Source: Sedimentisphaerales bacterium (GTDB taxonomy: Bacteria; Planctomycetota; Phycisphaerae; Sedimentisphaerales; Anaerobacaceae). Taken from it: 18,934 bases of DNA. Made by a program: the position numbers and the translations under genes. Numbering within the stretch: the first letter of the stretch is position 1; every line of letters starts with the position of its first letter. This document shows positions 557 through 9,985 of the stretch, in pieces. Under the pieces are notes generated by a model that worked only from the letters and a program-made list of their open reading frames with translations, did not search any database and was not told where the DNA came from. The stretch covers positions 1 to 18,934 of the forward strand of contig JBHIDV010000011.1 in the NCBI GenBank assembly GCA_046760285.1, read 5' to 3'.

Positions 557-1903
557 GTGGGAGTTCTAAGACTTCTAAGCCCAGCGCTAATACCGGAGAA
601 ACCAGCCACAAGGATACAATGGTTTATTAGACTCCGATGGTTGGCAGCTTCCGGGGTTCTTGTTTTCACAATTGTCGGTCGGTTCCTGCTCCAGCTACAG
701 TTTGAAGTTGCTCCGCTGATATTTGTCTGTATCTGCATAGCTCTATATAACACGGTGTTTTTCATTCTGGCTTATAGAACTCAACCAGAGGGTAAGTGGG
801 GTGAGAAGTTCTCTTTTATACAGGTAGGAACGGACATTTTGGCGCTTACTATTCTTATGCACTTTGGCGGAGGCATTGAAAATCCATTTATTTCCTACTA
901 TTTGTTCCATACAATTATTGCGGCCATTCTGCTGCCATGGTGGAAGGTGGCCTTGCAGGTCCTATTGGCATCGTCTTGTATTGCCGGTTTGGCGATAGCA
1001 GAATTGGTAGGCCTCTTAACTCATCGCCATGTCAGAGGGCTTTTGCCCTTTGAGCTATATGATAACTTCAAGTTTGTGATGGTCACCGTCCTGGCAATCA
1101 TCACCACGCTTTGTATTAGTGCTTTGCTTGCGGCCTCTATATCCCAGAGACTGCACGAAAGGGAAGAGCAACTGTCGGCGGCAAACGAAGACCTCAAAGA
1201 GCAGGACCGCATAAAATCACAATATGTTATGAGGGTAGCACATGACTTGGGCGGACCTGCTGGTACGATCACCAGCTGTCTCAAGTTGGTGACTCTGGGC
1301 CTGACTGGCCCGATCCCTGAAAAAGCCCTGGACATGGTCCAGCGAGCGCAACGTAAGAGCGAATATCTGGGACATCTGATCAGAGACTTGCTCAGCCTTT
1401 CCCGGATCAAGGCCGCGAAAGAAATCCCAAAGACCGCAGTCGAATTGCCGAAAATAATCAATCAAGTGTTCGAGGCATTACAGCCACAGGTAACGGACAA
1501 GAGCCTGGTTCTGGAGCAAAAACTTCCTGCTGCCTTGCCAGCAGTTTACGGCAATGCAGAAGCAATCTACGAGCTTTTCGATAACCTCGTGACAAACGCT
1601 GTCAAATACACGCCAATAGGCGGACGAGTGGAACTGGCCGTGTCGAATACGGGCGATAAAGTTCTGGTTAAGATACAAGACAATGGTGTCGGGATTCCCG
1701 CAGAAGCAGTCCCGCACATCTTCGAGGAGTTTTACCGTGCTGATAATGTTAAGGCCGAGGGTATGGAAGGGACTGGACTGGGGCTGGCGATCGTCAAACA
1801 GATTCTCCATGCGCACGAGGCAAAGTTCTGGGTTGAAAGCGAGCAAGGCAGTGGGACCACGTTTTCATTTACTCTACCGATAATGAGAAAATCGTATGTA
1901 TAG
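557..1903 (+). CDS. Sensor histidine kinase with polytopic membrane N-terminus
   Basis: GTG start after AGGAAAG. The first ~190 aa contain five or six hydrophobic helices. An H-box-like MRVAHDLGGP follows a coiled-coil stretch. The C-terminal HATPase_c domain has an N box (LVTNAVKYT), G1 (DNGVGIP) and G2 (GTGLGLAIV). The stop codon overlaps the next start (ATGTATAG). Confidence 0.85.
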   Translation: MGVLRLLSPALIPEKPATRIQWFIRLRWLAASGVLVFTIVGRFLLQLQFEVAPLIFVCICIALYNTVFFILAYRTQPEGKWGEKFSFIQVGTDILALTILMHFGGGIENPFISYYLFHTIIAAILLPWWKVALQVLLASSCIAGLAIAELVGLLTHRHVRGLLPFELYDNFKFVMVTVLAIITTLCISALLAASISQRLHEREEQLSAANEDLKEQDRIKSQYVMRVAHDLGGPAGTITSCLKLVTLGLTGPIPEKALDMVQRAQRKSEYLGHLIRDLLSLSRIKAAKEIPKTAVELPKIINQVFEALQPQVTDKSLVLEQKLPAALPAVYGNAEAIYELFDNLVTNAVKYTPIGGRVELAVSNTGDKVLVKIQDNGVGIPAEAVPHIFEEFYRADNVKAEGMEGTGLGLAIVKQILHAHEAKFWVESEQGSGTTFSFTLPIMRKSYV

Positions 1904-2948
1904 TGAGAAAAAGATTCAACTGAATGCCCCTGCAGGCAACCTGCCATCCTTCATTGCGGCGGTAGATGCCGGCGCCGATCTGGTGTATATGGGATTCAGG
2001 TCACCAACAAATCTGCGAAATTTGCCCGGCCTGAATTTTTCTGTCGAACAAGCTCAAAAAGCAGTACAATATGCCCACCAACACGGAAGGGGCGTCCATG
2101 TTACCGTGAACACTTATCCTACCGATACCCAACTCAAAGAGTGTTTCCGAGCTGTTGATTACGCTCATGACATTGGCGCCGATGCCGTGATAGCGGCAGA
2201 CTGGGCGGTGCTGGACTATACTCGAAACAGATATCCAGATATGGAGATTCATCTTAGCTGTGTCGCTGGGGTAGCCGATCCTGCTGCCATTCATTTCTAC
2301 CGTAAAGAATTTGGTATAAACTGTGTTGTACTTCCCAGAGTCCTTTGCCTTGAACAAATAGCTGCTCTGCGTAGGCAAACGGATGTGCTCCTGGAGGTAA
2401 TGGTCTTCGGTGTTTTATGTGCCAATTATGACGGTAGGTGTTGTCTGTCGTCTTTCATCACCGGAGCCAGCGCACACAGTATCGGCGCCTGTGCGCCAGC
2501 AGAATTTGTGCAGTTCAAAGAAACTGAGGAAGGTCGCCTAAGTCTGAAGCTCAATGGCATCGTCATCAACAGCTTTGCCGCCACGGAAAAGCATACGTAT
2601 CCAACGCCATGCAAAGGAAAGTATTATAATCCTGCTGTGGGTCGCTGGCTGCACGCTTTTCAGGACCCTTGTTGCCTCAACGCTTTGTCCGTCTTGGGCA
2701 AACTCGCAGCAGCCGGCGTAGACATAGTGAAAATTGAAGGCAGGCAAAGGTCGCTGGCATACATTCAGTTAGTTACAAGCGCCTGGCGCGAGGCGATCGA
2801 TTCACTCAGTCAACGAGAAAACTTTGACCCCCAGAAACATAAGGGACCCCAGCCGAAAAAGATGTCGGCTGGGAGCCCTAAAAATATGTCGCTGGACTCT
2901 ATCCTGGAGGGGACGGCAGGCTCGCTTGGAGCACTTGGTAGAGGTTAG
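1896..2948 (+). CDS. Peptidase U32 family protein, UbiU-like O2-independent hydroxylase subunit
   Basis: The N-terminus IQLNAPAGNLPSFIAAVDAGADLVYMG matches the hallmark ELLAPAGN...DAVY start of U32 proteins. Four Cys residues spaced C-x6-C-x16-C-x39-C match, from memory, the 4Fe-4S ligands C169/C176/C193/C232 of E. coli UbiU. The C-terminal tail carries an in-frame 36-nt palindromic element (2843-2878). Confidence 0.8.
   Translation: MYSEKKIQLNAPAGNLPSFIAAVDAGADLVYMGFRSPTNLRNLPGLNFSVEQAQKAVQYAHQHGRGVHVTVNTYPTDTQLKECFRAVDYAHDIGADAVIAADWAVLDYTRNRYPDMEIHLSCVAGVADPAAIHFYRKEFGINCVVLPRVLCLEQIAALRRQTDVLLEVMVFGVLCANYDGRCCLSSFITGASAHSIGACAPAEFVQFKETEEGRLSLKLNGIVINSFAATEKHTYPTPCKGKYYNPAVGRWLHAFQDPCCLNALSVLGKLAAAGVDIVKIEGRQRSLAYIQLVTSAWREAIDSLSQRENFDPQKHKGPQPKKMSAGSPKNMSLDSILEGTAGSLGALGRG
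2843..2878. repeat. 36-nt GC-rich palindromic element, copy A, inside the UbiU-like CDS
   Basis: GGGACCCCAGCCG-aaaaagatgt-CGGCTGGGAGCCC with complementary arms, flanked by TAA on both sides. It encodes GPQPKKMSAGSP in frame. Confidence 0.85.
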
Positions 2949-2951
2949 AAT

Positions 2952-4385
2952 ATGAAAATATCTGTTGGGCCTGCCCCGTCACATTGGGGTAGGGAAAGAA
3001 TTGAAAGTTTCTATCGTGAGCTGTGCCAAAGTCCCGTGGATTATGTGTATCTCGGAGAGATTGCTTGTCCAGAGCGTTCATGCTTTACACCTGATTTTTT
3101 TAATAGGCTCTGCGATGAGCTTTCACAGGCGGGCAAAAAGGTGTACGCATCCTCGTTAATCCTCGTTAGAGATGAGAAGCAATATCGTGCCTTTGAAGAG
3201 ATGGCACAACGATTACAGCGTGTAGAGATCAATAGCCCTGCGTTTCTGGGCCTCGCCCGGCGCTGGCCTTGCGTGACCGGCACGTTTCTTAACGTATATA
3301 ACTCAGCCGCTGTGAATATTCTGGCAAAACATATGGTTGAAAGGATAGTATTATCTCCTGAACTTAGCTTTCAATCAATCACCTCCATTACCAAGAGGTG
3401 CACAGTGGCCACGGAGCTTATAGTCCACGGATACGTACCAATTGCGATGTCCGGCACTTGCCAGACGGCACGCTCACTCGGACAGAATGGCCACGGATGT
3501 GGAAAGTCCTGTCAGTGTTATCCCGAAGGAATGGTATTAATGGCAGGTGACCGGTCTCTGTTTCGTATTGAGGGACCACAGACACTCTCAGCCGCAATCT
3601 ATTGCCTGGTAGAGTATCTGCCGTGGTTGGAAAAGGCAGGCATCGATACAATACGCATACTGCCTCAGTGGAATCATACTGGTCGTATTGTGAATATCTA
3701 TCGGGATGTGTTGCATAATCGCAGAGATTGTCGAGATGCCGTAGAAGAGCTAAAAGCAATTACGCCGGTGGAACTCTGCAATGGTTGGCTCTTAGGCAAA
3801 GCTGGGTGGCTTTATGAATCACCAGACAGAACTCAGAAGTCAGAAGACAGAAATCAGAAAACAGAAGTCAGAAATCAGAAGTCAGAAGTCCGTCTTCTGT
3901 CGTCTGTCTTCTGTCGTCTGTCTTCTGTCGTTTGTCCTCTGCCATCTGTCCTCTGTCGTCTGTCCTCTGTTGTCTCTTCGAAGGATTGTCGCCGTGCTTG
4001 GTCTACTAATGACATCATTCGTGAGGTGAATCAGCTTTTAGAGGTAATGCATGATGACCCCCAATTCATCAAGAAGATTGCTGGGTTTAAAGGGGTGGTG
4101 GTTGTGCTTAGTGCCTCAGATACTGGACGAGAGTTCATAATCGAATTAAATAAGCAAGGCGTGCGGGTCCGACCCTATAGCGGCCAGCCCTTCGATGTCA
4201 ATATTCAAGCTACTGAACAGGTTCTTTGGGCGGTCCTCTCAGGTCAGATGGATGCAGACACAGCGTTCTTTAGCGGTAAGGTCCGCATTTGTGGCTCCAT
4301 AGCCACAGCATTTCGTGTTAAAAACAGTTTTCTAAGCCTCCTTCAAAGGCATCTGAGTCAAACCATGAAAGCTAACACAAGTTAG
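2952..4385 (+). CDS. U32 family UbiV-like protein fused to a C-terminal SCP2 (UbiT-like) lipid-binding domain
   Basis: The N-terminus MKISVGP...VDYVYLGEIACPERS parallels E. coli YhbV/UbiV (MKYSLGP...VIYLGEAVCSKRR). The Cys cluster C-x12-C-x3-C (SGTCQTARSLGQNGHGCGKSCQC) plus the N-terminal Cys matches the UbiV 4Fe-4S ligand pattern. The last ~120 aa (VVVVLSASDTGREFIIEL...FFSGKVRICGSIATAFRV) look like an SCP2 sterol-carrier fold. The two parts are joined by a repeat-encoded low-complexity linker. Confidence 0.8.
   Translation: MKISVGPAPSHWGRERIESFYRELCQSPVDYVYLGEIACPERSCFTPDFFNRLCDELSQAGKKVYASSLILVRDEKQYRAFEEMAQRLQRVEINSPAFLGLARRWPCVTGTFLNVYNSAAVNILAKHMVERIVLSPELSFQSITSITKRCTVATELIVHGYVPIAMSGTCQTARSLGQNGHGCGKSCQCYPEGMVLMAGDRSLFRIEGPQTLSAAIYCLVEYLPWLEKAGIDTIRILPQWNHTGRIVNIYRDVLHNRRDCRDAVEELKAITPVELCNGWLLGKAGWLYESPDRTQKSEDRNQKTEVRNQKSEVRLLSSVFCRLSSVVCPLPSVLCRLSSVVSSKDCRRAWSTNDIIREVNQLLEVMHDDPQFIKKIAGFKGVVVVLSASDTGREFIIELNKQGVRVRPYSGQPFDVNIQATEQVLWAVLSGQMDADTAFFSGKVRICGSIATAFRVKNSFLSLLQRHLSQTMKANTS
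3823..3977. repeat. Heptamer tandem array (CAGAAGT-like, ~10 units) followed by its inverted complement (GTCTTCT-like, ~12 units): a long imperfect hairpin inside the CDS
   Basis: Direct reading gives cagacag aactcag aagtcag aagacag aaatcag aaaacag aagtcag aaatcag aagtcag aagtc, then c gtcttct gtcgtct gtcttct gtcgtct gtcttct gtcgttt gtcctct gccatct gtcctct gtcgtct gtcctct gttgtct. The symmetry centre is at ~3890/3891. Confidence 0.9.
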
Positions 4386-4423
4386 CTAATAGAATCAACT
4401 CTTAACATATAAAGGAGACCGAT

Positions 4424-5158
4424 ATGAAAAAAAATAAAAAAACTAATGCTGTACAGTATAGCACAGCGCGCAGGGGCCCATTTGGACGGCGTAAAATGCT
4501 GAAAGTCGGCGCTTTAGGTGCGTTGGCTGGTTACACTGGCACAGCGAAAGCCCTGGCCAGCAGCAAATCCACTATTAAACAAAAACGCTATGCCATGGTG
4601 ATTGATTTGCGAAGGTGTATTGGCTGCCATGCCTGCTCGGTAGCCTGCAAATCGGAGTTTAGCGTGCCTCTGGGGGTATGGAGGTCCTGGGTCAAGCAGG
4701 CCGAACGCGGCAAGTTTCCGAACACTCAGCGTCATTTCCTGCCGCGTCTATGCAACCACTGTGAGTACCCCACGTGCGTAGAGGCCTGCCCGACCAAGGC
4801 GTCGTACCAGCGGGACGATGGAATTGTTCTGGTCCGCGAAGAGCGATGTATCGGTTGTAGGCTATGTGTTTCAGCCTGTCCGTACAATGCACGCTTCTTT
4901 CACCCAGATGAGAAGATTGCTAACAAGTGTACTTTTTGTGTGCATCGTGTGGACCAGGGCCTGGTCCCCGCGTGCGTCAACACATGCCAGGGCAGAGCAC
5001 GTATTTTCGGTGACCTGAATGACCCAACGAGTGAGGTCGCTAAGCTCGTCGCCAGAGAACCTGTCCAGGTACTCAAACCAAAACTCGGAACTGAGCCCCG
5101 CGTTTTTTATATCGCCTCAGATACAGGGCTGATGGGGCGCATTAGAAAGGAGATCTGA
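4424..5158 (+). CDS. Four-cluster 4Fe-4S ferredoxin-type electron-transfer subunit of a molybdopterin oxidoreductase (TtrB/PsrB/PhsB-like) with Tat signal
   Basis: Strong SD AAAGGAGA. A twin-arginine motif GRRKMLKVGALGALA precedes an AxA cleavage site. There are four ferredoxin Cys clusters: CIGCHACSVAC, CNHCEYPTCVEACP, CIGCRLCVSACP and CTFC...C...C. Confidence 0.85.
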   Translation: MKKNKKTNAVQYSTARRGPFGRRKMLKVGALGALAGYTGTAKALASSKSTIKQKRYAMVIDLRRCIGCHACSVACKSEFSVPLGVWRSWVKQAERGKFPNTQRHFLPRLCNHCEYPTCVEACPTKASYQRDDGIVLVREERCIGCRLCVSACPYNARFFHPDEKIANKCTFCVHRVDQGLVPACVNTCQGRARIFGDLNDPTSEVAKLVAREPVQVLKPKLGTEPRVFYIASDTGLMGRIRKEI

Positions 5159-5159
5159 A

Positions 5160-6023
5160 ATGGAACAAGTAATCTATTACAATATCCACCACCATGAGGC
5201 AATGGGTCCACTAATTGTTCTGTACTTTTTCCTGAGTGGTTTAGGGGCGGGTGCTTTTCTGACGGCGGTGGGCTTGCAAATTTTCGGCAGCGAAAAGTAC
5301 GAAAAAATCGCCAGAACTGCTGCCATTGCCGCACCTGTCATGCTTATTCCGGGGCTGCTATGCCTTCTTTTGGACCTGGGTAAGCCTTTGCGGTTTCTCA
5401 ACCTGTTTTTTTACTTCAATCCCTCCAGCGTTGCTTCTTGGGGGGTGTGGATAATAAATATCTTCTTGGTGATTTCTGTGCTCTACGCATTTTCGCACGT
5501 GATAGGCAAAGCCCAAAGAGCAAAGCCGTTAGCCTATCTGGGCCTCGTTTTTGCCTTGGCAGTAGGGTTTTACTCTGGCCTGCTCTTGTACCAGATGCAC
5601 GGCTATGTTCTATGGCACTCGGCGCTGCTGCCGATGCTCTTTTTAGTCTCCGCTATTGCCTCTGGGCTTGCGGTGGTGCTGCTTCTCTCGGGCTCGGCTG
5701 AGCCTGACCAAACTCGTGTACTTTCCAAAGTTCTCGCTGTCGTGGTCGGTATAGATTTGGTACTGGCTTTGACTGAGGTGCTGACCCTGGCGGTCAGTAG
5801 TGGTGAAAAAGCAGAAATCGCCAATGTCATTCTGTCAGGTGGCTATGGCTTTTTGTTCATCGTGGTATACATAATTGCTGGTTTGGCCCTACCACTGTTC
5901 GTGTTGGTACAGCGGCAGGTGACCCGTAATGTTCAAGTGGGTGCTTGCGTTCTGGTTTTGGTGGGAACTCTGGCCATGCGTTATGTAATTGTGGTGGGCG
6001 GACAAGCTCTGCCGTTAAGTTAA
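5160..6023 (+). CDS. NrfD/PsrC-family integral membrane quinol-interacting anchor subunit
   Basis: Strong SD AAAGGAGAT, starting 1 nt after the previous stop. The protein is highly hydrophobic with ~8 predicted helices, and its length and N-terminus resemble PsrC/NrfD. Confidence 0.8.
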   Translation: MEQVIYYNIHHHEAMGPLIVLYFFLSGLGAGAFLTAVGLQIFGSEKYEKIARTAAIAAPVMLIPGLLCLLLDLGKPLRFLNLFFYFNPSSVASWGVWIINIFLVISVLYAFSHVIGKAQRAKPLAYLGLVFALAVGFYSGLLLYQMHGYVLWHSALLPMLFLVSAIASGLAVVLLLSGSAEPDQTRVLSKVLAVVVGIDLVLALTEVLTLAVSSGEKAEIANVILSGGYGFLFIVVYIIAGLALPLFVLVQRQVTRNVQVGACVLVLVGTLAMRYVIVVGGQALPLS

Positions 6024-6038
6024 TCAGCCGATTGGTAA

Positions 6039-6074
6039 GGGTTCCCAGCGGCAATACATCGCCGCTGGGGTCCC
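6039..6074. repeat. 36-nt GC-rich palindromic element, copy B, intergenic and in inverted orientation
   Basis: GGGTTCCCAGCGGC-aatacatc-GCCGCTGGGGTCCC flanked by TAA/TAA. It lies between the NrfD-like stop and the catalytic-subunit RBS. Confidence 0.85.
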
Positions 6075-6093
6075 TAATGAAAGGGAAAGAACC

Positions 6094-8631
6094 ATGTCAA
6101 ATATAACACGACGTGATTTCTTAAAGCTGGGCACGGCCAGCTCAACTCTCGCTGCTGCCGGGCTGGGTGCGGGAGCTACCCTTGCTGGCAGTATCAAGCT
6201 GACTGAAGGGGGTAGGAACTTTTCGGTCCGAACTGGTAAACAGCTAAAAGCCATCCCCTCGGCTTGCTGGCAATGCGTGACTCGTGATGGGATTATTGGA
6301 TACGTGGAAGATGGACGCCTGGTCAAAATCGAGGGCAATCCTAAGCTGCCTCGCACCAATGGCAAGCTTTGCTCCCGTGGCCAAGCTGGAACCAATATAC
6401 TTTACAACCCAGACCGTCTCCTCCATCCTTACAAACGTGTGGGTAAGCGTGGAGAGGGAAAATGGCAGCAAATATCGTGGGAGCAGGCCCTGGACCTGCT
6501 CGTCAACGGAGGCGAGATAGCCGGGCATAAGGTTAAAGGTCTGAAAACCCTTCTCGACGAGGGACACCCCGAAAAATTCATGTTCCACTATGGCCGGATG
6601 AAGGGCAGCGATAGCAAAATCATCAAAGACTACTTTCTGGCCGCATACGGCACTGGGACCGTTGGTAACCACACAGGCATTTGCGAGTCTGCCAAATGGA
6701 CGGCTCACGAGCTTACCTGGGGCAGCCACTATGACAACTGGGATTTTGAGAATACAAAGTTTATCCTGAACTTTGGAAGCAATGTTTTAGAGTGCCATAC
6801 CAATCATGTGCCTGAAGCACAGCGGTGCATCGACGCGATGGCAAAAGGTGTCCCCATGTACACTTTCGATGTGCGTCTGTCCAACACAGCAGCCAAGTCT
6901 ACGGAGTGGATTCCTATCAAGCCTGGCACGGACCTTGCGGTTGTCCTTGCTATGTGCAACGTCCTTCTGCAGAACGGCATTTGTGACAAGCAGTTCATCG
7001 AGACTTATACAAACGTAACTTGTGACGAACTAAAGAGCCATCTGGCGCAGTACACACCGCAGTGGGCCGAGCAGATTAGCGGTGTGCCGGCTGAGAAGAT
7101 CCGTACTATCGCCCTTGCTTATGGTCGAACGAAGCCGAGCGTATGTATCAGCTATCGTGGCGCCGTCATGCACTACAACGGTGTCCAAACGGAGCGGGCG
7201 ATACTTATGCTCGAGGCAATCGCCGGCAATATCGACTGTCCCGGCGGCCGCTGTCGGGCCGTGGGTGCAAAGTGGAAGTTTACCTTTGCCAAACCTACGA
7301 CGAAGGCCAAGAAGCTGCATATCCTTGATGGCGAAGAAGGCGCCTATGCGTATCCGACACACCACACCTCGCACCAAGTTTTCCATATGATCAACAAGGG
7401 CCCGGAACGTCCCGAAATCTACATGATATATTGTTACAACCCTATTTATGTCAATGGTGAGATACAGGCTAATATCGACCTTATGAAGGACGAGCAGAAG
7501 ATGCCTTTCATCGTGGCTGTTGATGTAGCGATCTCGGAAAGTGCGGAACTCGCTGACCTTCTGCTTCCTGACGCAACGTATCTGGAGCGCTGGACTGCTG
7601 ACGATATGGTCTGTCCGAGTCAAGTCCCTGAGTATTATATACGCCAACCACTGGTCAAGCCTTTAGGTGAGGCACGTAACTTTTGCGACGTGGTCTGTGA
7701 CATTGCCAAGCGACTCGGTCTGGACCTTGGATTCAACTCGGCGGAGGAGTTCGTCAGGAACGGCTGTGAGAACACCCCAGGTGTGAAGGAAGCAGGTGGA
7801 TTTGAGTACATGAAGAAGCACGGCGCCTGGTACGATAAGAGTGCCAAGCCGGCCTATTTCAGCCACACCAAAGAGGTGGATGTGACCGGAGCTACCCTGG
7901 ACGAGGCCACAGGGGTTTACTACAAGAAGCAGCCTGAAGACACAGACTATTCTTCACTCGATAGCAAACACGCCGCCGCCCAGTACGTCGCCCAGCGATG
8001 TGGCGACGGAGTTGCGCGAAAGGGTTTCCCACCCGACAAGCACAGATGGAAAACAGGTCTCTTTGAGATCCGCTCGAAAGCGCTCGCTGATAAAAGCTTC
8101 GATGCATTGCCCTCATGGATGCCCATCCCCGAACATGAAAAGATGGGGCCGGATGATTTGATCCTGACCACCTTCAAGGTCAATGTTCAGACCCACTCGC
8201 GCAGTCAGAACTGCAAGTGGCTCACAGAAATATTTCACGAAAATCCAGCGTGGATCCATCCGGCCACGGCAATGGCACGAGGCATCAAAGATGGAGATAT
8301 GATAAAAGTGATCTCGGCGATTGGTGAGATCACTACCAAGGCCAATGTGACTGAAGGTGTTGTTCCCGGAGTTGTAGCGATCTCAAACCACATGGGACAC
8401 TGGGCGTATGGCGGTTACGCCTCCGGTAAGTCATGCCAGGAACTCTTTAGCCACGAATGTGAGATCGACTGCCACCACAAGTGGTGGGGCAAGAATGCCA
8501 AAGACCGAGGTACCAAGGTATGGCGCGACGGAAGGGGCGTACACGTGAACTGGATAATTCCCAACGTTGGTGATCCTATTGGAGGCGCACAACGATGGAT
8601 GGATACAGTTGTGCGGGTGACTAAGGTGTGA
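6094..8631 (+). CDS. Molybdopterin (Mo/W-bisPGD) oxidoreductase catalytic subunit with Tat signal (TtrA/PsrA/SrdA-like)
   Basis: Twin-arginine motif TRRDFLKLG. The N-terminal Fe-S (FS0) motif C58-x2-C61-x3-D65-x27-C93 follows. The 845-aa length fits the DMSO reductase superfamily. The gene lies directly downstream of the ferredoxin and NrfD subunits. Confidence 0.9.
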   Translation: MSNITRRDFLKLGTASSTLAAAGLGAGATLAGSIKLTEGGRNFSVRTGKQLKAIPSACWQCVTRDGIIGYVEDGRLVKIEGNPKLPRTNGKLCSRGQAGTNILYNPDRLLHPYKRVGKRGEGKWQQISWEQALDLLVNGGEIAGHKVKGLKTLLDEGHPEKFMFHYGRMKGSDSKIIKDYFLAAYGTGTVGNHTGICESAKWTAHELTWGSHYDNWDFENTKFILNFGSNVLECHTNHVPEAQRCIDAMAKGVPMYTFDVRLSNTAAKSTEWIPIKPGTDLAVVLAMCNVLLQNGICDKQFIETYTNVTCDELKSHLAQYTPQWAEQISGVPAEKIRTIALAYGRTKPSVCISYRGAVMHYNGVQTERAILMLEAIAGNIDCPGGRCRAVGAKWKFTFAKPTTKAKKLHILDGEEGAYAYPTHHTSHQVFHMINKGPERPEIYMIYCYNPIYVNGEIQANIDLMKDEQKMPFIVAVDVAISESAELADLLLPDATYLERWTADDMVCPSQVPEYYIRQPLVKPLGEARNFCDVVCDIAKRLGLDLGFNSAEEFVRNGCENTPGVKEAGGFEYMKKHGAWYDKSAKPAYFSHTKEVDVTGATLDEATGVYYKKQPEDTDYSSLDSKHAAAQYVAQRCGDGVARKGFPPDKHRWKTGLFEIRSKALADKSFDALPSWMPIPEHEKMGPDDLILTTFKVNVQTHSRSQNCKWLTEIFHENPAWIHPATAMARGIKDGDMIKVISAIGEITTKANVTEGVVPGVVAISNHMGHWAYGGYASGKSCQELFSHECEIDCHHKWWGKNAKDRGTKVWRDGRGVHVNWIIPNVGDPIGGAQRWMDTVVRVTKV

Positions 8632-9524
8632 AAAGACAAAGCCAGAAAAACCCTTTAGGTTGGCCAGCGGTTAGAGAGCAGTGGCGTGAGCAGGCCATCA
8701 GCCGCAGTAATTGCTATGGTCTCTTGGCGCTTGTATTCCGAGGGCCACCGACTCGCGATGTTGTTGAGCGGCTCAGGACCCCATCATTGGCCCAGGCCCT
8801 CAACTACTTAGGATACGACGTCACACAGGAGCTCGCTGGCGAGCTTGAAGCATTGACGGAGCGCCTCCGCCAGCAATATACACGTATCTTTAGTGGTCCA
8901 GGGCCCCACGTCTCCCTCTATGCTTCGGTACACTATGCTAAGGGACCCCAGCCGCAAAAAATGGCGGCTGGGAGCCCTAATGAGGGGCGGTTCTGGGGTG
9001 ATTCTACTGTGTGGGTGAAACACTTTATCGAAACGACAGGACTTTCCTTCACAGGTAACTGGGACAGCATACCCGACCACATAGCAATCGAGCTTGAACT
9101 GATGCAACGGCTTACTGCCTACGAGGCTCAGCTATGGGCAAGCTTACCGGAACAATCGCATAATAAGAACAACATGGGCAAGCAAATCTGCCAATGTCTT
9201 CAGACACAAGAGCAGTTCCTCCGTGACCATCTGTGTTTATGGATTCCTCGATTCTGTAAGTGTGTATTAGAGACATCCACCGGTACTTTTTACCAGAAAA
9301 TGACGAAACTAACGAAGTTTCTCGTCCTCTCTGACGTTGAAAATGTAGTGGCTGCTCAAAGCATACTATCTGACTCATCTACAAAACGTCGACAACGCAA
9401 CGGTCTGTCCCAGCAGGAACCTAATATGGTAGGGACCCCGCTCCGCGGGAACCCAGCCAAGCCATTGGGTTCCCAGCCGCCATTTTTCGCGGCTGGGGTC
9501 CCATTCCAGGAGGAAAAGACATGA
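8628..9524 (+). CDS. TorD/DmsD/NarJ-family redox-enzyme maturation chaperone-like protein, with repeat-derived insertions and C-terminal extension
   Basis: GTG start overlapping the upstream stop (GTGA). Family motifs YTRIFSGPGPHVSLYASVH and IPDHIAIELELM are present. The gene contains palindromic element copy C in frame and ends with a ~70-aa tail encoded by the nested palindrome D. Confidence 0.6.
   Translation: MKRQSQKNPLGWPAVREQWREQAISRSNCYGLLALVFRGPPTRDVVERLRTPSLAQALNYLGYDVTQELAGELEALTERLRQQYTRIFSGPGPHVSLYASVHYAKGPQPQKMAAGSPNEGRFWGDSTVWVKHFIETTGLSFTGNWDSIPDHIAIELELMQRLTAYEAQLWASLPEQSHNKNNMGKQICQCLQTQEQFLRDHLCLWIPRFCKCVLETSTGTFYQKMTKLTKFLVLSDVENVVAAQSILSDSSTKRRQRNGLSQQEPNMVGTPLRGNPAKPLGSQPPFFAAGVPFQEEKT
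8942..8977. repeat. 36-nt GC-rich palindromic element, copy C, inside the TorD-like CDS
   Basis: GGGACCCCAGCCG-caaaaaatgg-CGGCTGGGAGCCC flanked by TAA/TAA. It encodes GPQPQKMAAGSP in frame. Confidence 0.85.
9432..9502. repeat. Nested palindromic element D (short palindrome D1 9432-9454 plus 36-nt copy D2 9467-9502) immediately upstream of the receiver gene RBS
   Basis: D1 is GGGACCCCGC-tcc-GCGGGAACCC. D2 is GGGTTCCCAGCCGC-catttttc-GCGGCTGGGGTCCC. The outer arms 9432-9439 and 9495-9502 and the inner arms 9447-9454 and 9467-9474 are complementary. D2 is flanked by ATT/ATT. Confidence 0.8.
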
Positions 9525-9985
9525 GCAGTCAACCAAAGAAGGTGCTTGTGGTAGATGATGACCAGAGTGCTATAGCGTTCGTGAAGGCTGCGCTCGAGCC
9601 AGAGAAGTACACCGTTATAGGCGCAGGTGACGGACTGGCCGGGCTGGAGCAAGCTCGCCAGGAACCTCCCGACCTTATCATACTTGATGTGTACATGCCT
9701 CGTCAGCCAGGATTTTACACGCTACGGGATATAAAAAACGACCCTAAAACTAAAGATATCCCTGTCATCATGCTTACTGGGGTCGGGGAGCGACTGGGCA
9801 TTACATTTTCTACGCAGGACATCTACGACTTCCTTGGGATTGAGCCTGATGTCTACCTCGAAAAACCGGTTGACCCGCTGTTCTTACGCAGGGTAGCAGA
9901 CAGACTCTCAGGAATAAATTCTGCTGCCAACGGCCGCGCAACCCCAAAGGACGTAAAAGATGGCAACAGCAAGCAACATTCTTAA
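9521..9985 (+). CDS. Stand-alone response regulator receiver (CheY-like REC) protein
   Basis: Strong SD AGGAGGA. It has the acidic pocket VLVVDDD, the phospho-acceptor Asp in IILDVYMP and no output domain (154 aa). Confidence 0.85.
   Translation: MSSQPKKVLVVDDDQSAIAFVKAALEPEKYTVIGAGDGLAGLEQARQEPPDLIILDVYMPRQPGFYTLRDIKNDPKTKDIPVIMLTGVGERLGITFSTQDIYDFLGIEPDVYLEKPVDPLFLRRVADRLSGINSAANGRATPKDVKDGNSKQHS

Follow-up and report, generated by a model that had tools for sequence, protein, structure and literature searches.

Four copies of a 36-nt GC-rich imperfect palindrome, together with one 23-nt short variant, are carried by the window analyzed here, which is a whole 18,934-bp contig of an NCBI metagenome-assembled genome (MAG) labeled Sedimentisphaerales bacterium (Planctomycetota). 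These sequences are probably copies of a non-autonomous miniature mobile element that duplicates its target site, having the size of a repetitive extragenic palindrome (REP) and the behavior of a MITE (miniature inverted-repeat transposable element). The same element recurs in several genomes, between short direct repeats and often in frame inside genes, and the corresponding sites are empty in relatives of the window. Its hosts are Planctomycetota, mainly Phycisphaerae-type sediment bacteria.

Insertion footprint of the element

The pattern GGGACCCCAGC-N(10-18)-GCTGGGANCCC matches the window at exactly four sites, all fitting N14, which are copies A, B, C, and D2 (Table 1). It has zero matches in 200 dinucleotide-preserving shuffles of the window, and none is expected by chance. 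The search thus confirmed a preliminary description, made from the sequence alone, which had placed four 36-nt copies at these coordinates, each between identical trinucleotides. The consensus core proposed at the time does not exactly accommodate copy A (inner stem AGCCGA/TCGGCT; right end of A and C GGGAGCCC). BLAST with short words detected no decayed further copies in the window. The short variant D1, whose termini are those of the family, is oriented opposite to D2 and begins an inverted doublet with it, 12 nt upstream. D1 has no flanking duplication and is directly preceded by GGTA (9428-9431); the tail region around it fails to align with relatives. A second 23-nt variant occurs in another locus (L067, 683-705).

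Table 1. Element copies in the window and the genes that host them
Feature	Position	Strand	Description
Copy A	2843-2878	+	36-nt hairpin GGGACCCCAGCCGAAAAAGATGTCGGCTGGGAGCCC; in frame in the C-terminal region of a U32 (UbiU-like) gene
Flanks of copy A	2840-2842 and 2879-2881		TAA at both positions
Copy B	6039-6074	-	Inverted 36-nt element; flanks TAA at 6036-6038 and 6075-6077
Copy C	8942-8977	+	36-nt element, in frame in a TorD-like gene; flanks TAA at 8939-8941 and 8978-8980
D1	9432-9454	+	23-nt short variant GGGACCCC-GCTCCGC-GGGAACCC
Copy D2	9467-9502	-	Inverted 36-nt element, identical to the family consensus; flanks ATT at 9464-9466 and 9503-9505
Host gene of copy A	1896-2948	+	Peptidase-U32 family protein, 350 aa versus 337 aa in nearly all close homologs
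Host gene of C, D1, and D2	8628-9524	+	TorD/DmsD-type (Nitrate_red_del) chaperone, 298 aa versus ~230-270 aa in relatives

The duplication of the flanks extends to the copies found elsewhere. Perfect 3-nt direct repeats border 17 of 34 distinct copies and comprise 13 different sequences (TTA and TAA three times each; GAT, AAA, CTC, GAG, ACG, AGA, TCT, TCG, CAA, CAG, and AAT once each), and 12 of the other 17 copies match at two of the three flank positions. Triplets taken at shifted positions as controls gave only 0-4 matches (binomial p ~3e-19). Since the flank sequences vary from copy to copy, they are target-derived duplications and lie outside the element. Three nucleotides is the modal duplication length. 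Reconstruction of the targets reveals no clear site motif beyond a slight leaning toward A/T (6 of the 17 perfect duplications are TAA or TTA); no conserved GTAG or CGTC tag is present at either end across the 34 copies.

The sites occupied in the window are empty in related genomes, a comparison that the preliminary description had suggested for orthologous genes. One locus, L075, is fully syntenic with the window operon (~72% nucleotide identity over the operon) and, like L071, L072, and L076, has none of the elements. At site A, an exact 39-nt gap is found in L075 and L076, where a single TAA or TAG, respectively, remains. Site C also corresponds to a 39-nt gap at the DNA level in syntenic relatives, while at site B the gap is 34-38 nt depending on how the short spacer is aligned, the spacer itself being 37-38 nt shorter in L072, L075, and L076. 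The D1-D2 doublet is absent from L071, L072, and L075, in which the tail aligns poorly. The 39-nt gaps, together with the single remaining triplet, indicate that a 36-nt element and 3 nt of duplicated target were gained in the window lineage. At the protein level, the U32 alignment shows a single clean 13-residue gap opposite KGPQPKKMSAGSP in close homologs, and 116 of the 117 homologs covering the region have zero residues in the 13 insert columns. The columns of KGPQPQKMAAGSP are likewise devoid of residues in 119 of 119 TorD-like homologs.

Hairpin architecture and residence inside genes

Read in the common orientation, the element is asymmetric, with GGGACCCC at its 5' end and GGGA[A/G]CCC at its 3' end, which creates a conserved 2x2 mismatch. 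The 14-nt arms, GGGACCCCAGCCGC and GCGGCTGGGAACCC, are complementary at 12 of 14 positions. Folded as single-stranded DNA, the element has an outer stem of 3 bp and an inner stem of 9 bp, which are separated by the 2x2 internal mismatch and capped by an 8-nt loop, with a folding energy of -12.6 to -14.2 kcal/mol (z ~ -5). Variation was surveyed in 32 distinct 36-mers from element-bearing genomes and sister families, which had been pre-filtered for palindromy, so that the share of paired positions is overstated. In this set, A32 and the six pairs at the termini are invariant, and C5 stays mismatched opposite A32, the single exception being T5. Compensatory double changes occur at 5 of the 12 stem pairs, all in the inner stem, where AGCCGC/GCGGCT is replaced by AAACGC/GCGTTT, ACCGGC/GCCGGT, AGCGGC/GCCGCT, or AGCCGA/TCGGCT; window copies A and B have one compensated change apiece.

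Selection for a hairpin intermediate may explain such compensation. Template switching, by which quasi-palindromes are known to correct themselves, may explain it just as well, and since the two explanations are on a par, the compensation leaves the mechanism undecided. The mismatch, which goes uncorrected, looks selected. The loop adds another kind of variation, as in about one-quarter of the copies it is flipped with respect to the asymmetric termini (GCGAAAAATGGC versus GCCATTTTTCGC). Copies with GCCATTTTTCGC in place of GCGAAAAATGGC, over a region of 8-12 nt, were found at L009 (4624), L054 (4013), L055 (874), L058 (3488), L061 (4039), and L063 (1855); with inverted loops at six loci, the family exists in two flip-flop states. 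Small inversions are known to occur between short inverted repeats.

The element consensus contains no stop codon in six of six frames, and all six are observed in long open reading frames (ORFs). Judged by spanning ORFs, ~40% of the copies are intragenic, compared with ~10% intragenic and ~90% intergenic in MITE surveys (PMC11602168). In the window, copy A with its duplicated triplet adds KGPQPKKMSAGSP to the U32 protein, and copy C adds KGPQPQKMAAGSP, which forms residues 105-117 of the TorD-like protein. The preliminary description counted 12 residues per insertion, but there are in fact 13, a lysine codon being made up of the duplicated TAA and the first G of the element. It also regarded some copies as intergenic. 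This holds for copy B, which lies in a 70-nt spacer between an NrfD-like gene (stop at 6023) and a molybdopterin oxidoreductase gene (ATG at 6094), but not for D1 and D2, both of which lie inside the C-terminal tail of the TorD-like ORF. Because this ORF runs through D1 and D2 to a stop that overlaps the next ATG, D2 is a third in-frame copy, translated as GSQPPFFAAGVP in another frame than copy C. The TGA concerned overlaps the start of a response-regulator gene (9521-9985) as ATGA. The ORF ends in FQEEKT, and the relatives L071 and L072 have similar termini (FQEKET and FREENT), while in L075 the TorD-like ORF ends earlier and an 84-nt spacer remains; the C-terminal tail is variable.

Structure prediction, which the preliminary description had proposed as a check on the encoded loops, came out in its favor. 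In an AlphaFold2 model of the TorD-like protein based on a 120-sequence alignment (mean predicted local distance difference test [pLDDT] score, 77.9), residues 105-117 are predicted to form a coil of low confidence (pLDDT ~54-59, and <50 at residues 110-113) between confident helices (87-97), and the tail holding D1 and D2 is predicted to be disordered. In other loci, Pfam confirmed that the element resides in ordinary genes, among them those for MurE (two copies), RsmB, a DUF5060 hydrolase, trigger factor, YidC, and an NtrC-like regulator. The insertions there fall between or outside domains. In RsmB, the element separates the ferredoxin-like and methyltransferase domains; in trigger factor, it lies in the C-terminal tail, and in YidC, in the N-terminal region. 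Both MurE insertions correspond to gaps relative to solved MurE structures, and to exactly 13 residues relative to one solved chain (a MurE-like protein). The insertions constitute a natural 13-residue linker scan, which reveals permissive sites in such essential proteins as MurE, YidC, trigger factor, RsmB, the U32 protein, and the TorD-type chaperone. For annotation, the elements account for odd indels and lengthened ORF tails in Planctomycetota proteins.

A longer form was also encountered. At L054 2719-2769, a 51-nt variant with a 15-nt internal insertion (CCTGGGGCCAAGCCC) sits in frame in the linker before the helix-turn-helix domain of a sigma-54-dependent NtrC-like regulator. The heptamer CCAAGCC of this variant recurs in the D1-D2 spacer of the window (9456-9462).

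Distribution and genomic context

One genome per GTDB species was scanned with a symmetric pattern, and JGI metagenomes were scanned with the strict pattern. The same 36-mer was recovered, often base-identical to D2, and at least 30 additional copies of it are present in other Planctomycetota MAGs and in sediment metagenomes, in line with the expectation that the family would not be confined to the window. A Pirellulales-labeled MAG (CAZEPI01) has 16 copies in 12 fetched loci, and the element also occurs in a Phycisphaerae MAG (L022) and in 16 marine-sediment metagenome contigs. Loci L059 and L062, which are 95-97% identical, have one insertion in common, indicating that copies persist vertically. 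Plasmid and phage collections gave zero matches to the 36-mer, and an exact search of the contig index for the U32 protein of the window gave none either. On a viral contig from IMG/VR, a hairpin at L074 610-645 (GGGTTCCCAGCCAGTCAGGGGACTGGCTGGGGTCCC) has the length and the asymmetric termini of the family with a different inner stem, flanked by GAC and GAT; it may be related to the planctomycete element. The viral-contig scan otherwise returned one unrelated terminator.

All five copies in the window lie within 6.7 kb of the molybdoenzyme/U32 operon, with zero in the remaining 12 kb. The listed contigs of the CAZEPI01 MAG have just one match to the strict pattern per ~100 kb, which makes the window unusually copy dense. 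Pfam assigns to the window a sensor kinase, two U32 proteins (one fused to SCP2), a PsrB/PsrC/PsrA-like molybdoenzyme, the TorD-type chaperone, a response regulator, molybdenum-cofactor genes, and nitrogen-assimilation genes. The adjacent U32 genes at 1896-4385 (the second with SCP2) resemble a UbiU/UbiV/UbiT module for O2-independent quinone hydroxylation. The pair is located directly 5' of the PsrB/PsrC/PsrA-like molybdoenzyme and 3' of a UbiE-like methyltransferase and a PilS-like kinase, and this block as a whole is syntenic in L075 and L076.

Two further groups of hairpins came to light. Other Planctomycetota MAGs contain a sister hairpin of 36 nt, GGGTCCCCAGCCGCATAATTCCGCGGCTGGGAGCCC, joined head to tail with a hairpin of a second subfamily (CCAAACGCG...CGCGTTTGG). 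The fused hairpins form a conserved composite dimer of ~85 nt, reminiscent of bacterial interspersed mosaic elements (BIMEs) or REPINs, at L002 3030, L008 899, L013 5675, L033 935, and L035 6288. Sister-family singletons at L033 2841, L052 1951, and L052 1257 are preceded by GGTA, which gives GTAG with the first G of the element, and have no flanking duplication. In Sphingopyxis and relatives, an apparently separate palindrome of ~52 nt, GCGAAAGC-GGGRACCCAGC...GCTGGGTTCCC-GCTTTCGC, has the CCCAGC/GCTGGG core in common with the planctomycete element (L003, L016, L018, L019, L021, L030, L031, L038, and L040). This repeat may be a CGTC/REP-type family of Sphingomonadaceae.

Origin of the copies and relation to known systems

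The 36-bp imperfect palindrome inserts at many unrelated sites, shows little preference for particular target sequences, and usually duplicates 3 bp of target, for a net gain of 39 bp, or 13 codons, so that the reading frame is kept. With six open frames, insertions in loops, interdomain linkers, or protein tails survive selection, and those elsewhere are presumably purged. Since the element is non-coding, it would be mobilized in trans. The two 14-bp arms may serve a transposase as its terminal inverted repeats; bound to them, the enzyme would cut the target with a 3-nt stagger in a DDE-like manner, gap repair then making the duplication. A DDE-type transposase that cuts with a stagger and works on 14-bp arms agrees with the variable duplications and with the absence of any fixed tetranucleotide at the flanks. 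Perhaps the enzyme is of this type, a proposal to which we give even chances. Movement would then involve a double-stranded DNA intermediate and might be of either the cut-and-paste or the copy-in kind. Insertion sequence (IS) families with 3-bp duplications include, according to ISfinder descriptions, IS3, IS30, and the IS1031 and ISL2 groups of IS5.

Several observations weigh against this origin. No transposase was identified by Pfam among all ORFs of the window, no multi-copy ORF emerged when the 668 ORFs of the element-bearing loci (~0.2 Mb) were compared all against all by BLAST, and the fetched loci contain no solo ends and no longer elements with the same ends. The duplication length varies, with 4 nt at L057 (TGAC), 5 nt at L065 (TATAG), and 2 nt at a few copies, which is unusual for a single DDE enzyme. 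A reader of single-stranded hairpins would fit the covarying inner-stem pairs and the mismatch, with its conserved asymmetry, better than a protein that binds double-stranded terminal repeats. The element, at 36 bp, is also below the 50-800 bp size range of MITEs (PMC11602168). Finally, copies in the source organism were counted within one 18.9-kb contig, and those in other genomes within windows of ≤13 kb.

Part of this evidence would be accommodated if the copies were strict REPs or REPINs, that is, single-strand hairpins moved by a REP-associated tyrosine transposase (RAYT), a domesticated Y1 (HUH) enzyme whose single gene would lie elsewhere in the genome. The 36-nt size and the imperfect GC-rich hairpin suit a REP, the asymmetric mismatch sets one strand apart from the other, and covariation is seen in the inner stem. 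The D1/D2 inverted doublet, with its 12-nt spacing, and the composite dimers of the sister families point in the same direction, as does the GGTA that precedes D1 and three sister-family copies, giving GTAG with the first G of the element at copies that have no duplication. Moreover, GTAG REPs, some of them intragenic, are documented in Planctomycetes and Verrucomicrobia (PMC3733652). However, the GTAG/CGTC tag is conserved in 0 of 34 main-family copies, whereas half of the copies have perfect and variable 3-nt duplications and the empty sites hold a single triplet. Y1 transposition of the IS200/IS605 type inserts beside a fixed tetranucleotide and makes no duplication. The RAYT or IS200/IS605 gene that the preliminary description proposed to look for was found neither in the window nor in the element-bearing loci read, where a crude motif scan of this limited sequence sample detected no HUH/Y1-like ORF. 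We therefore consider movement by a RAYT unlikely.

Much less probable still is that the host retains the sequence as a functional motif, be it to stabilize or terminate mRNA, to bind a protein, or to supply a useful peptide module. Copy B separates two genes of a single operon, and a stable RNA hairpin at that position could influence mRNA decay; the peptides encoded by copies A and C are near-identical, and co-option of REPs is known (PMC3733652). Yet relatives with the fully syntenic operon lack the elements, no Rfam family matched in the window, and the insertions fall in variable loops, linkers, and tails. An intrinsic terminator is rejected, since a T-run follows 0 copies (flanks TAAAAAT, TAATGA, TAATGA, and ATTCCA) and none is among the terminator-like sites. 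A selected peptide motif is rejected as well, as all six frames are used and give unrelated peptides. As the origin of the copies, a host function is thus largely refuted. We attach next to no weight to an assembly or sequencing artifact of the MAG, even though the window is a single 18.9-kb metagenome-assembled contig, because the same 36-mer occurs with other flanks in independent assemblies from several projects and samples, long ORFs stay open across it, and compensatory substitutions are present. The copies are not CRISPR repeats either, being irregularly spaced (3196, 2903, and 525 nt between successive copies), in both orientations, and inside genes.

A bolder possibility, which we judge doubtful, is that this is the smallest duplication-generating transposable element described in bacteria. 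Its enzyme would read the hairpin and the strand-marking mismatch and integrate by a short staggered cut almost anywhere, a mechanism that would differ both from the RAYT/IS200 kind and from that of classical IS-derived MITEs. If this were true, the element could be a bacterial counterpart of mitochondrial GC clusters, and its six open frames would be an adaptation to life inside essential genes.

Whichever enzyme is involved, an element probably mobile and duplicating its target blurs the boundary between REPs, which are tagged, extragenic, and without duplication, and MITEs, which are ≥50 bp and make duplications, and it offers a useful test case for the movement of very short palindromes. 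Such elements are too short for standard MITE finders and have no REP tag, so that MAG-rich phyla probably hold more of them than have been counted. The searched literature contained no published description of the family, and its sequence is absent from the supplementary tables of the REP catalog (PMC3733652). The likeness to REPs, MITEs, and Rickettsia palindromic elements (RPEs) that had been noted from the outset is apt, with differences in each case. As in REPs and REPINs, GC-rich imperfect hairpins of 20-40 nt are dispersed, sometimes as inverted doublets, and subfamilies differ by alternative complementary stems. Intragenic, in-frame REP copies are known in Opitutus terrae, Rickettsia conorii, and Rhodopirellula baltica (Di Nocera et al. 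2013, PMC3733652). The planctomycete family differs in having variable 3-nt duplications and no conserved terminal tetranucleotide, in being often intragenic, and in that no RAYT gene was present in the sequence read. With MITEs such as Correia/NEMIS, Nezha, and Chunjie, it shares terminal inverted repeats of ≥10 bp, short duplications (2-10 bp in MITEs), a non-coding nature with presumed movement in trans, and occasional in-frame insertion. Prokaryotic MITEs are nonetheless larger and ~90% intergenic (PMC11602168), whereas this element consists merely of two 14-nt arms and an 8-nt loop and has no known parent IS.

The residence inside proteins is reminiscent of RPEs, palindromes inserted in frame in many functional genes of unrelated kinds, whose permissive regions thereby gain a peptide typical of the family. 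RPEs are ~100-150 bp long and add 30-50 residues (PMC10969869), whereas the planctomycete element adds 13 residues and uses six frames, and Rickettsia (Alphaproteobacteria) is unrelated to its hosts in lineage, as RPEs are to it in sequence. Membership of RPE families 1-10 is ruled out by host phylum, length, and sequence, the likeness being limited to in-frame insertion. In-frame palindromic repeats are thus already known, from RPEs and from intragenic GTAG/CGTC REPs (PMC3733652, PMC10969869). What is unusual in a bacterium is the combination of REP size, MITE-like variable duplications, absence of a tag, six open frames, and frequent residence in essential genes.

Outside bacteria, the GC clusters of yeast mitochondria (such as GC42) are hairpins of ~40 bp between direct repeats of 2-3 nt (Wu and Hao 2015, PMC4478555). 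Both are GC-rich hairpins with flanks resembling target-site duplications, stems conserved above loops, presence/absence polymorphism, and an unknown mobilizing enzyme. GC clusters reside in AT-rich fungal mitochondria and have fixed flanks (AG or ACT), whereas the planctomycete flanks vary and the bacterial chromosome is ~50% GC. The mobilizing enzyme of the bacterial element, if found, may illuminate how GC clusters move. The planctomycete palindrome is best read as a bacterial analog of the RPEs and of the yeast mitochondrial GC clusters.

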